DNA of 41,005 bases from assembly GCA_011064745.1 (NCBI GenBank), contig JAAKFJ010000001.1:1-41005 (forward strand), written 5' to 3'. Below, in pieces: positions 36,558 through 38,093 of the stretch. This DNA is from Candidatus Anoxychlamydiales bacterium. GTDB lineage: Bacteria; Chlamydiota; Chlamydiia; Chlamydiales; SM23-39. Made by a program: the position numbers and the translations under genes. Position 1 is the stretch's first letter; every line of letters starts with the position of its first letter. A model generated the notes under the pieces. It was not told the DNA's origin and did not search any database. It saw only the letters and a program-made list of their open reading frames with translations.

Positions 36558-38093
36558 TCATTTTTTTGTCAAAAAAACTTGTTCATAAATAGCATATGGC
36601 TTTTTATAATAACCTGCCCATTCATTGTCTCCATAGGAAAAATGCCACCATTCTCCGTCGAATGGGGCAAATCCAGCTTGTACCATAATTGATCTTAGTA
36701 GCAGCCGATTTTTTTGTTGAACATCTGTGATCTGTTTTGAAAAAGGTTTTATTTTTTCGCTATCGCTAAAATCTGCTATTTTAGTGCCCATATCAAGTGT
36801 TTTACCTTCAACTTGAATAGTCAGATCAATTGCACCTCCAGTTGGGTGTCCAGCAACTTTGGGGACAGCTATCAATTGGTGAACCATTTCAAATAACTCT
36901 TCTTCTTCTAAAAAATCATATTTCTGTTTCATTAAATCACACTGTTCACAAAAATATTTTTGTTGAACATCAGGATGCCGATAAGCATAGACAAGTAAAA
37001 GTTTGGCGTTAGGTAGAACCTTTTTGAGGAAATCAGAGGTTTTTTTTAGCATTTGAATGCAACTTTTGCGAAGGAAAAAACTCTTTTTTGTATATGCATA
37101 CATATCAGATTGTTGATATCTAGCTAATACCTCTGGTAAATATTGCGCAATGTCAAGAAGCTCTTCTTCACAATCTTTTATAAGAATATCTTTTAAATCT
37201 CTATAACATACCATATTTTTTAACGAAGTTAATAATTCTAAATTATCATTTGTTATAATGTCTTTCCCAGCTTGTAGTTTGTAAGGACGAGCATCTTCGA
37301 GGGCTATATCCTTTTCATTCCATTCAAAAGGTATAAATCTGATAGTGATTTGACCTTTTGTAAATGATGGTTTTTCTATTCTAAGCATTTCACAAACATT
37401 TTTTTGAAAACTTTTTAAGTTATCTTCATTTTTGTAATACAGATCCTCATCATTGGGTAATAAAAAAACAATGTTTATACTATTTCCAGGCTTGAATTTG
37501 TTTTCTTCAAGAATTTTACGAATAAGAAAATAACCTTCCAAATATCGAAGAGTAGAATAAGATTTTTTTATTGATATATTAGATCTAGGAGGTTCTTTTG
37601 CAAGCTTCTGTGCACTTGCCTTCGGAATAAAGAATCGCTTTTCCCATATAACATCATTAATATATTTTTTTAGTTCTTGTGAGTTGCTCTTTATAAATTG
37701 AAAAAAATCGGCTGAATATAGAAATTTAATATCAGGGCATTTAAGATTTTTAATTTTTTGTATTTTTGATGATATTCTTAATTTTGTCTTATCACATTTT
37801 TGATTAAGTAATAACCATTTTTCAAGATCATAAAGAAAAAATGTAGGGTCCCCACATTTAGGTTCGTCTCTTATGGGTCTTATCAGATCATCTCGTAAAT
37901 ATTTAAACCAATCAACTCTGAGCTCTTTTTCAATGAACCAGGTGATCACTTGCGGATTAGATAATTGTTGTATTTCATCTATTAATTGCTTTTTAGATTT
38001 AATTATTGGACGGAATTGAACTAAAAGTTTAAGTTGATCATCCTCTTTAATATTGAGGGGATCGTTATTTTTTATTTTAGATATTTTAGACAT
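36558..38093 (-). CDS. Two-domain protein: unknown N-terminal domain (aa 1-300) fused to a VanX/DdpX-type zinc D-Ala-D-Ala dipeptidase (M15D)
   Basis: The C-terminal domain has 'LLLVYAYRHP', 'GHPTGGAIDLT' (H416, D423) and 'NRLLLRSIMVQAGF..EWWHF' (E481, H484). Ligand spacing (7/58/3) is identical to VanX H116/D123/E181/H184 as I recall them. An AAGGAG Shine-Dalgarno lies upstream. Confidence 0.85.
   Translation of the reverse strand: MSKISKIKNNDPLNIKEDDQLKLLVQFRPIIKSKKQLIDEIQQLSNPQVITWFIEKELRVDWFKYLRDDLIRPIRDEPKCGDPTFFLYDLEKWLLLNQKCDKTKLRISSKIQKIKNLKCPDIKFLYSADFFQFIKSNSQELKKYINDVIWEKRFFIPKASAQKLAKEPPRSNISIKKSYSTLRYLEGYFLIRKILEENKFKPGNSINIVFLLPNDEDLYYKNEDNLKSFQKNVCEMLRIEKPSFTKGQITIRFIPFEWNEKDIALEDARPYKLQAGKDIITNDNLELLTSLKNMVCYRDLKDILIKDCEEELLDIAQYLPEVLARYQQSDMYAYTKKSFFLRKSCIQMLKKTSDFLKKVLPNAKLLLVYAYRHPDVQQKYFCEQCDLMKQKYDFLEEEELFEMVHQLIAVPKVAGHPTGGAIDLTIQVEGKTLDMGTKIADFSDSEKIKPFSKQITDVQQKNRLLLRSIMVQAGFAPFDGEWWHFSYGDNEWAGYYKKPYAIYEQVFLTKK

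Follow-up and report, generated by a model that had tools for sequence, protein, structure and literature searches.

What kind of domain has been joined to the front of a VanX-like D,D-dipeptidase in a chlamydial operon? The question is raised by a 41,005-nucleotide stretch of a Candidatus Anoxychlamydiales genome (contig JAAKFJ010000001.1; the whole analysed stretch is called the window here), in which a minus-strand open reading frame (ORF) at 36558-38093 encodes a protein of 511 residues with a long N-terminal region ahead of its zinc dipeptidase domain. A preliminary description of this DNA had left that region unassigned and had proposed that it restrains the dipeptidase or recognises its substrate, sparing the product of Ddl. 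We find that the region, hereafter the N-domain, is an autonomous and undescribed protein family found almost only in Chlamydiota, and not an appendage specific to the dipeptidase. The reading that we favour, tentatively, is that of a highly derived domain resembling the class-Ic aminoacyl-tRNA synthetases, which would handle a free (probably D-) amino acid and aminoacyl-tRNA and would be fused to a partner from its own pathway. The two parts of the protein lie as follows.

37209..38093, minus strand: N-terminal domain, residues 1-295, an undescribed Chlamydiota family with a predicted Rossmann-like alpha/beta fold.
36558..37208, minus strand: M15D (VanX/DdpX-type) zinc D,D-dipeptidase domain, residues 296-511 plus the stop codon, matched by PF01427.

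The absence of any recognisable family in the N-terminal region, already remarked on in the preliminary description, holds under more sensitive comparison: no significant match to residues 1-295 was found in Pfam, NCBIfam, PADLOC, PHROGs or the sequences of the PDB, either with the single protein or with profiles and sets of 10 to 124 family members. When 1.84 billion representative proteins were searched with a profile, a family of 275 clusters (50% identity) emerged at E <= 1e-3, 117 of them with E <= 1e-30. With few exceptions, its members stand alone and are 260-340 residues long, and a survey of domain arrangements found, besides the dipeptidase fusion, only occasional fusions to a GNAT acetyltransferase, to a paralogue of HisRS or to an anticodon-binding domain. 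A word-indexed search with the 124-sequence profile returned 16 proteins only, each a "hypothetical protein" where the source gives a name, and no description of the family was found in the literature on it, on chlamydial racemase/dipeptidase modules or on Anoxychlamydiales. The family is present in 37 of 400 sampled Chlamydiota species genomes, patchily over many families, and its loci from GTDB genomes come nearly all from chlamydial metagenome-assembled genomes (MAGs). A few loci belong to MAGs labelled as other phyla (L010 and L024, Verrucomicrobiae; L012, Ignavibacteriae), for which mislabelling or binning error and true presence are both possible. Several Chlamydiota genomes (e.g. G266, G265, G259, G286, G296 and G385) hold copies that are fragmentary or contain in-frame stop codons, which suggests repeated decay of an accessory gene.

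In the window, the extension is translated and conserved. The ATG of the fusion gene lies 2 nt past the stop codon of the upstream racemase gene and is preceded, at 7 nt, by an AAGGAG Shine-Dalgarno sequence; the upstream start that the preliminary description had preferred to an internal Met is genuine. Three other cluster representatives (P0002-P0004, from public assemblies in ENA, ENA and NCBI) carry the fusion in equally continuous form, at 72-83% identity, as does a truncated "Candidatus Anoxychlamydiales" MAG contig (L009), which may be the source of P0004. Measured against L009, the ratio of nonsynonymous to synonymous substitution rates (dN/dS) is about 0.32 for the N-domain, 0.21 for the racemase, 0.14 for the symporter at the head of the operon and 0.12 for the start of the M15D part; on these ratios, the N-domain is under purifying selection. 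Alignment with stand-alone relatives places the start of the M15D domain at about residue 296, and both this alignment and the AlphaFold2 model described below have the last helix of the N-domain running into the dipeptidase without a linker.

An AlphaFold2 model of the N-domain, built from a 35-sequence alignment, is a compact alpha/beta structure (pLDDT 87.4, pTM 0.87), in keeping with the earlier supposition that the region folds. The expectation that it contains no transmembrane helix is likewise borne out, as its maximum Kyte-Doolittle hydropathy over 19 residues is 0.42 and no hydrophobic segment is present. When the predicted structure of residues 1-295 was searched with Foldseek, TyrRS, TrpRS and a cyclodipeptide synthase (CDPS) were weakly matched. 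For the confident model, the best match in the PDB is A. fulgidus TyrRS (E = 1.1e-3, probability 1.0), and the other top matches are the engineered synthetases 4nd7 and 5nsf, which we take to be derivatives of M. jannaschii TyrRS, a TrpRS, an E. histolytica TrpRS homologue and E. coli TyrRS, with a CDPS at rank 28 of the list. For a first, independent AlphaFold2 model of lower confidence (pLDDT 69.6), the matches were TyrRS structures from bacteria and, again, the E. histolytica TrpRS homologue. In a library of viral structures, the sole credible match is a phage cyclodileucine synthase (probability 0.85). On these models, the N-domain is probably, by a modest balance, kin to class-Ic synthetases and CDPSs at the level of the fold.

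Among 124 family members, W93, Y179, E186 and E216 are invariant, and W52, G55, S160, Q183, Y184, the LPN(D)E segment, Y219, Y220 and R269-P-Y271 are at least 90% conserved. The four motifs that contain most of these residues are found in the window's copy at the following positions.

37929..37940, minus strand: W52-F53-I54-E55, family consensus W-Y-x-G where a beta-strand ends; G55E in the fused clade.
37536..37559, minus strand: Y179-S-T-L-R183-Y-L-E186, family motif Y-S-x-x-Q-Y-x-E on a long helix, with Y179 and E186 invariant and Q183 replaced by R in the fused clade.
37434..37460, minus strand: L212-P-N-D-E216-D-L-Y219-Y220, family signature LPNDExxYY at the C-terminal end of a beta-strand; E216 is invariant.
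37281..37289, minus strand: R269-P270-Y271, a near-invariant loop motif that reads L-P-Y in three close fusion orthologues.

Judged from the alignment, the pattern is more what would be expected of an enzyme's pocket than of a scaffold. The N-domain appears to keep an amino-acid pocket like that of TyrRS, formed from Y179, Q/R183, E186, D215-E216 and W93, and it has lost the ATP motifs HIGH and KMSKS. None of His, Cys and Lys is conserved anywhere in the family, and no His or Lys is present in 45% or more of the members apart from K177 (50%) and K218 (58%), so that neither a HIGH nor a KMSKS motif is possible. The strand-end consensus W-Y-x-G resembles the Y-x-G of the TyrRS "LYxGFDPT" motif, to which, going by the motifs, it presumably corresponds.

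The rarer fusions of the N-domain connect it to amino-acid modification and to tRNA. Three members are fused to a GNAT domain (P0040, P0053 and P0073) and two to a full-length HisRS paralogue (P0041 and P0095), which reaches about 225 bits where the hisS cut-off is 287. In P0037 and in an ORF of G282 (L050 1145-2836, 563 residues), the N-domain is followed by an unassigned spacer of about 180 residues and a bare HGTP anticodon-binding domain (22.9 bits for the G282 ORF, cut-off 21), with no recognisable class-II catalytic core; the G282 ORF has racemase genes and a polar-amino-acid ABC transporter as its neighbours. A HisRS-like gene and an aromatic/histidine ammonia-lyase neighbour the family gene in three loci (L004, L007 and L014). 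Use of tRNA by the family is what the fusions to the HisRS paralogue and the anticodon-binding domain suggest. In L014, from an uncultured Chlamydiae MAG, a 1026-residue fusion of HisRS paralogue and ammonia-lyase (2019-5099) lies directly upstream of the racemase and N-domain genes. As a separate observation, neither TyrRS nor TrpRS (PF00579) was found in the window's own genome (G000, an 86.6%-complete MAG), whereas all 12 relatives have a match and 11 of the 12 have both genes; assembly gaps are the likely cause, and a loss of both would be notable.

The C-terminal part of the protein is an M15D dipeptidase with its catalytic residues complete. PF01427 (Peptidase_M15) matches residues 362-500 over profile positions 60-193, with 69.3 bits against a cut-off of 27, and in an alignment to the VanX structure 1r44, R372, H416, D423, E481 and H484 fall on the motifs of VanX and DdpX. 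Their counterparts, R71, H116, D123, E181 and H184 of VanX, are presumably the arginine, two zinc ligands (His, Asp), the catalytic Glu and the third zinc ligand (His), respectively. The earlier view of a catalytic domain that is displaced and still entire is thus upheld. The residues are encoded at these positions.

36978-36980, minus strand: R372, corresponding to VanX R71.
36825..36848, minus strand: H416-PTGGAI-D423, counterpart of the VanX zinc-ligand motif SxHxxGxAxD (alignment to 1r44).
36642..36653, minus strand: E481-W-W-H484, counterpart of the catalytic Glu and third zinc ligand of VanX (ExxH).

By its sequence, this domain is an intact but divergent M15D subfamily. It falls below the NCBIfam equivalog cut-offs for both DdpX (NF007557, 61.8 vs 176 bits) and VanX (NF033115, 47.2 vs 320 bits). 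It is 40-47% identical to stand-alone M15D genes that are linked to the N-domain family, with which alone it shares an insert of about 16 residues, and 31% identical to the canonical DdpX of its own genome. The latter (191 residues, 172.1 bits on the NF007557 DdpX model with its cut-off of 176) is encoded on contig 65 (L032: ORFs 2-1063, 1074-1400 and 1468-2043) downstream of an alanine racemase and a CutA-like gene, both assigned by sequence only. Because the canonical DdpX also sits with a racemase, the genome has two distinct racemase/M15D pairs, and because it sits beside an alanine racemase, the fused M15D is probably not the housekeeping D-Ala-D-Ala enzyme; its substrate is probably not simply D-Ala-D-Ala. 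For a distinct subfamily of this kind, default annotation as a D-Ala-D-Ala dipeptidase is inadvisable.

The fusion gene is the third gene of an operon, downstream of a symporter and a racemase, which are preceded by a candidate promoter.

38096..38812, minus strand: Asp/Glu-type racemase, 238 residues, PF01177, with motifs ACNTLH and GCTELS; TIGR00035 gives 79 bits, below the cut-off of 93.
38815..40179, minus strand: sodium:solute symporter (SSF), 454 residues, first gene of the operon, PF00474; below every equivalog cut-off.
40508..40537, minus strand: candidate operon promoter, TTGACA, 18-nt spacer and TATAAT, a 12/12 match to the sigma-70-type consensus about 330 nt upstream of the symporter start.

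The promoter assignment is a consensus match in a long AT-rich intergenic region where the total of promoter-like sites is not above chance. Parts of the same gene set recur around the N-domain elsewhere. In 13 of 24 loci, the N-domain gene has a homologous racemase directly beside it; a symporter homologue lies within 6 kb of it in five loci, usually adjoining, and a separate M15D gene is near it in three (L015, L020 and L024). The order is racemase, N-domain, symporter, M15D in L020 and L024, and racemase, N-domain, M15D in L015, where 15 nt separate the last two genes; this last arrangement looks like the unfused precursor. Because these loci encode a related M15D separately, beside the N-domain gene or one gene away from it, we read the window protein as two adjacent genes of one pathway that have become fused. 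A second symporter-racemase-N-domain operon is present in the same genome (contig 84, 7386-11288; L006: ORFs 1-771, 761-1489 and 1477-2412). Its symporter and racemase are 62% identical to those of the window; its N-domain, about 40-45% identical, is a stand-alone protein of 311 residues that is followed by no M15D gene and that forms, in the tree, the sister of the fused clade (SH-aLRT 93). Another operon type of the family, referred to below as the second operon type, combines the N-domain with a GNAT (Acetyltransf_3), a BioC/Tam-like methyltransferase and an MFS transporter. Elsewhere in the window, 13 kb from the operon, an MIO-type ammonia-lyase is encoded on the minus strand (22019-23716; PF00221, 413 bits). 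Its homologues adjoin the N-domain gene in L004 and L014 (51-62% identical) and in L007 (43%), and the enzyme may be functionally linked to the operon though not adjacent to it.

On the most economical reading, as a synthetase-like domain, the N-domain would bind an amino acid or aminoacyl group in its TyrRS-like pocket and work with aminoacyl-tRNA without ATP. In the version that we favour, the aminoacyl group would be moved from the tRNA to a D-amino-acid acceptor, itself supplied by the fused dipeptidase and the racemase, from a precursor that the Na+ symporter would import. The substrate is probably a D-amino acid because free D-amino acids are what the racemase and the M15D dipeptidase have in common as products, and the involvement of tRNA is proposed because of the HisRS-paralogue and anticodon-domain fusions. 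In the second operon type, the GNAT has a free amine as its target and the carboxyl-methyltransferase a free carboxylate. More specifically, the family could represent a new ATP-independent lineage derived from class-Ic synthetases, standing beside the CDPSs and joining the aminoacyl group of a charged tRNA to a D-amino acid from the racemase or dipeptidase; in this fuller form, we regard the proposal as doubtful. The domain architecture, the family itself, its gene linkage and fusions, its conserved residues and the predicted fold are all seen in the data, whereas we infer that the domain is homologous to class-Ic synthetases, that it uses tRNA, that its substrate has the D-configuration and in which direction the reaction runs.

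Several observations weigh against the synthetase-like reading. If the N-domain made a D,D-dipeptide, then its fusion to a D,D-dipeptidase would constitute a futile cycle. The structural similarity is weak, with TM-scores of 0.35-0.41 and a root-mean-square deviation of 7-8 Å (TM-score to CDPS 0.32-0.41). Comparison of the family profile by hhalign with TyrRS and TrpRS alignments from related genomes was not significant (probability <1%), nor was comparison with a chlamydial CDPS (probability 0.5%), and we do not claim sequence homology to CDPS, TyrRS or TrpRS because of these profile-profile results. An unbiased local hhalign of sub-profiles does set Y179-x3-Q183-x2-E186 on the amino-acid-binding Y-x3-Q-x2-D of TyrRS, but at an E-value (0.15) that is not significant. 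At the strand end where a CDPS has its nucleophile, presumably the catalytic Ser of the G-x-S motif after the first Rossmann strand (S37 in AlbC), the family has W-Y-x-G-x-x-G and no conserved Ser, as placed by motif and not by superposition; S160 and S180 lie elsewhere. Lastly, the fused copy is altered at positions conserved in the family, and its function may on that account differ or be weakened.

Given these results, the N-domain as a canonical CDPS was considered and rejected. PF16715 has no match among the 124 family members at E <= 0.01 or among 10 members at E <= 1, and PF00579 has none among the 124. By sequence, the family thus lacks what defines either group: the sequence model and catalytic Ser of a CDPS, and the HIGH and KMSKS motifs of a class-Ic synthetase. 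Of 300 Chlamydiota genomes, PF16715 does match in 2 (above the cut-off in one, below it in the other), in unrelated contexts (L030 1435-2184 and L031 768-1529), and these are other genes.

The main alternative, which we think unlikely and which avoids the futile cycle, is that the N-domain hydrolyses aminoacyl-tRNA as an editing-type deacylase acting, for example, on D-aminoacyl-tRNA. The fusion protein would then unite two hydrolases, each of them liberating free D-amino acids, and the operon would serve the salvage or detoxification of D-amino acids, with the racemase converting them to the L-form. All of the partners would find a place in such a scheme, including the racemase, the M15D dipeptidase and the GNAT and exporter of the second operon type; N-acetylation of D-amino acids is a known route of detoxification in yeast. 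The N-terminal position of the domain in the fusions to the HisRS paralogue and the anticodon-binding domain recalls editing domains within synthetases, and the two invariant Glu residues could serve as general base. The carboxyl-methyltransferase of the second operon type would, however, have no obvious role, HisRS is not, to our knowledge, known to require editing, and the nearest structural analogues of the N-domain, CDPS and TyrRS, are transferases and ligases and not hydrolases. Moreover, 4 of the 5 related genomes with a family member also encode canonical D-Tyr-tRNA deacylase (PF02580), and we therefore reject replacement of that enzyme by the N-domain.

It is likewise improbable, in our judgement, that the resemblance to class-Ic synthetases is a generic Rossmann similarity and that the N-domain is an unrelated, tRNA-free enzyme acting on an amino-acid derivative, for instance an amidase or a transferase, or else one that uses two Glu residues in the manner of a glycosidase. 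The TM-scores below 0.4 and the lack of a sequence-profile signal are compatible with this, the two invariant Glu and the many conserved aromatic residues would suit the pocket of a hydrolase, and most family members have no tRNA-related partner. Generic similarity would be expected to return a mixture of families, yet class-Ic synthetases and CDPS dominate the credible matches in two libraries and with two models, and these overlap the neighbours reported for CDPSs themselves (PMC4159871). The fusions to an anticodon-binding domain would also be hard to explain without tRNA.

Somewhat less plausible still is that the N-domain of the fused clade is non-catalytic, an ancestral enzyme decayed into a module for binding, regulation or oligomerisation of the dipeptidase. 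The fused clade departs from 4-6 of 24 near-invariant family positions, where the other members average 1.2 and only 2% of members have five departures or more. All members of the clade have G55E, Q183R and D174S, and the three close fusion orthologues additionally have D215N and R269L, with S160 kept by none of the three. The dN/dS of the N-domain exceeds that of the other operon parts compared above, and an intact stand-alone paralogue in the same genome could retain the original activity. Against this, all four invariant residues are kept, the window's fused copy also retains S160, D215 and R269, and the domain is under purifying selection. The stand-alone paralogue itself departs at about three positions (assuming that P0011, of the same 311-residue length, stands for it), so that much of the divergence is lineage-wide, and the notion of a clearly degenerate fused copy is weakened. 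Of the role suggested in the preliminary description, a shift of the fused clade to binding alone would be possible given these replacements. The proposal of a module that regulates the dipeptidase or recognises its substrate, and so spares the Ddl product, is not supported: the domain is an autonomous, mostly stand-alone family with enzyme-like invariant residues, and elsewhere the M15D enzyme has a separate gene nearby.

That the extension is an artefact, either of misassembly or a frameshift-joined ORF or as an untranslated leader to an internal start, has a negligible chance: it finds no support beyond the existence of a Met at residue 294, just ahead of the domain junction, and is contradicted by the other fusion copies and the dN/dS of 0.32, to which the Shine-Dalgarno site, the tight coupling to the racemase stop codon and the confident fold within a large family can be added.

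These results provide a first fold-level lead for about 275 clusters left unnamed or "hypothetical" in the source databases, and set the family in a recurring gene network with a racemase, a D,D-dipeptidase, a transporter, a GNAT and methyltransferase, a HisRS paralogue and an anticodon-binding domain. Should the synthetase-like reading be true, the family would add a new branch to the few enzymes that divert aminoacyl-tRNA from translation, one tied to D-amino acids in obligate intracellular bacteria; should aminoacyl transfer also be true, it would offer these bacteria a tRNA-dependent route to peptides containing D-amino acids. Both would bear on how such bacteria obtain D-amino acids for peptidoglycan and exchange amino acids with the host.

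Among known systems, the CDPSs (PF16715; AlbC, YvmC and Rv2275) present the closest parallel to the N-domain. They too are small alpha/beta domains of about 250-300 residues, are structurally closest to A. fulgidus and M. jannaschii TyrRS and E. histolytica TrpRS, and are without ATP motifs (PMC4159871). Archaeal TyrRS and E. histolytica TrpRS are also, though at low TM-scores, among the best matches to the N-domain, whose family likewise lacks those motifs. In the CDPSs, Y178 and E182 place the substrate's alpha-amino group (PMC4159871), and in both families one face of a helix bears a Tyr together with an acidic or amide residue. Both are patchy in their occurrence among intracellular bacteria (for CDPSs, PMC2922099), and the methyltransferase and exporter in one operon type of the N-domain family could be tailoring genes. 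The N-domain differs from CDPSs in its own signatures, LPNDExxYY and RPY, in the missing PF16715 match and nucleophile Ser, and in its partners, a racemase, a D,D-dipeptidase and a HisRS paralogue.

The best Foldseek matches come from the class-Ic synthetases (TyrRS and TrpRS; PF00579); the family's Y-x3-Q-x2-E was set, though not significantly, on the tyrosine-binding Y-x3-Q-x2-D of TyrRS, and its strand-end W-Y-x-G resembles the Y-x-G there. The N-domain is set apart from them by the loss of HIGH and KMSKS, by the lack of a PF00579 match and by the fact that it mostly occurs without an appended tRNA-binding domain. The C-terminal domain resembles VanX and DdpX (MEROPS M15D; PDB 1r44) in its PF01427 match above threshold and in the retained counterparts of the five VanX residues listed above, and differs from them in its scores far below the equivalog cut-offs, in the insert of about 16 residues and in coexisting with a separate canonical DdpX.

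As a whole, the operon recalls the VanC-type resistance clusters, which comprise the VanT racemase, a ligase and the VanXY D,D-peptidase. Both combine a racemase that would supply a D-amino acid, a D,D-dipeptidase and a third, amino-acid-handling enzyme. In the window, however, this third enzyme is not an ATP-grasp ligase of the Ddl type, the racemase is of the Asp/Glu type and not dependent on pyridoxal phosphate, there is no two-component regulator, and a symporter forms part of the operon.

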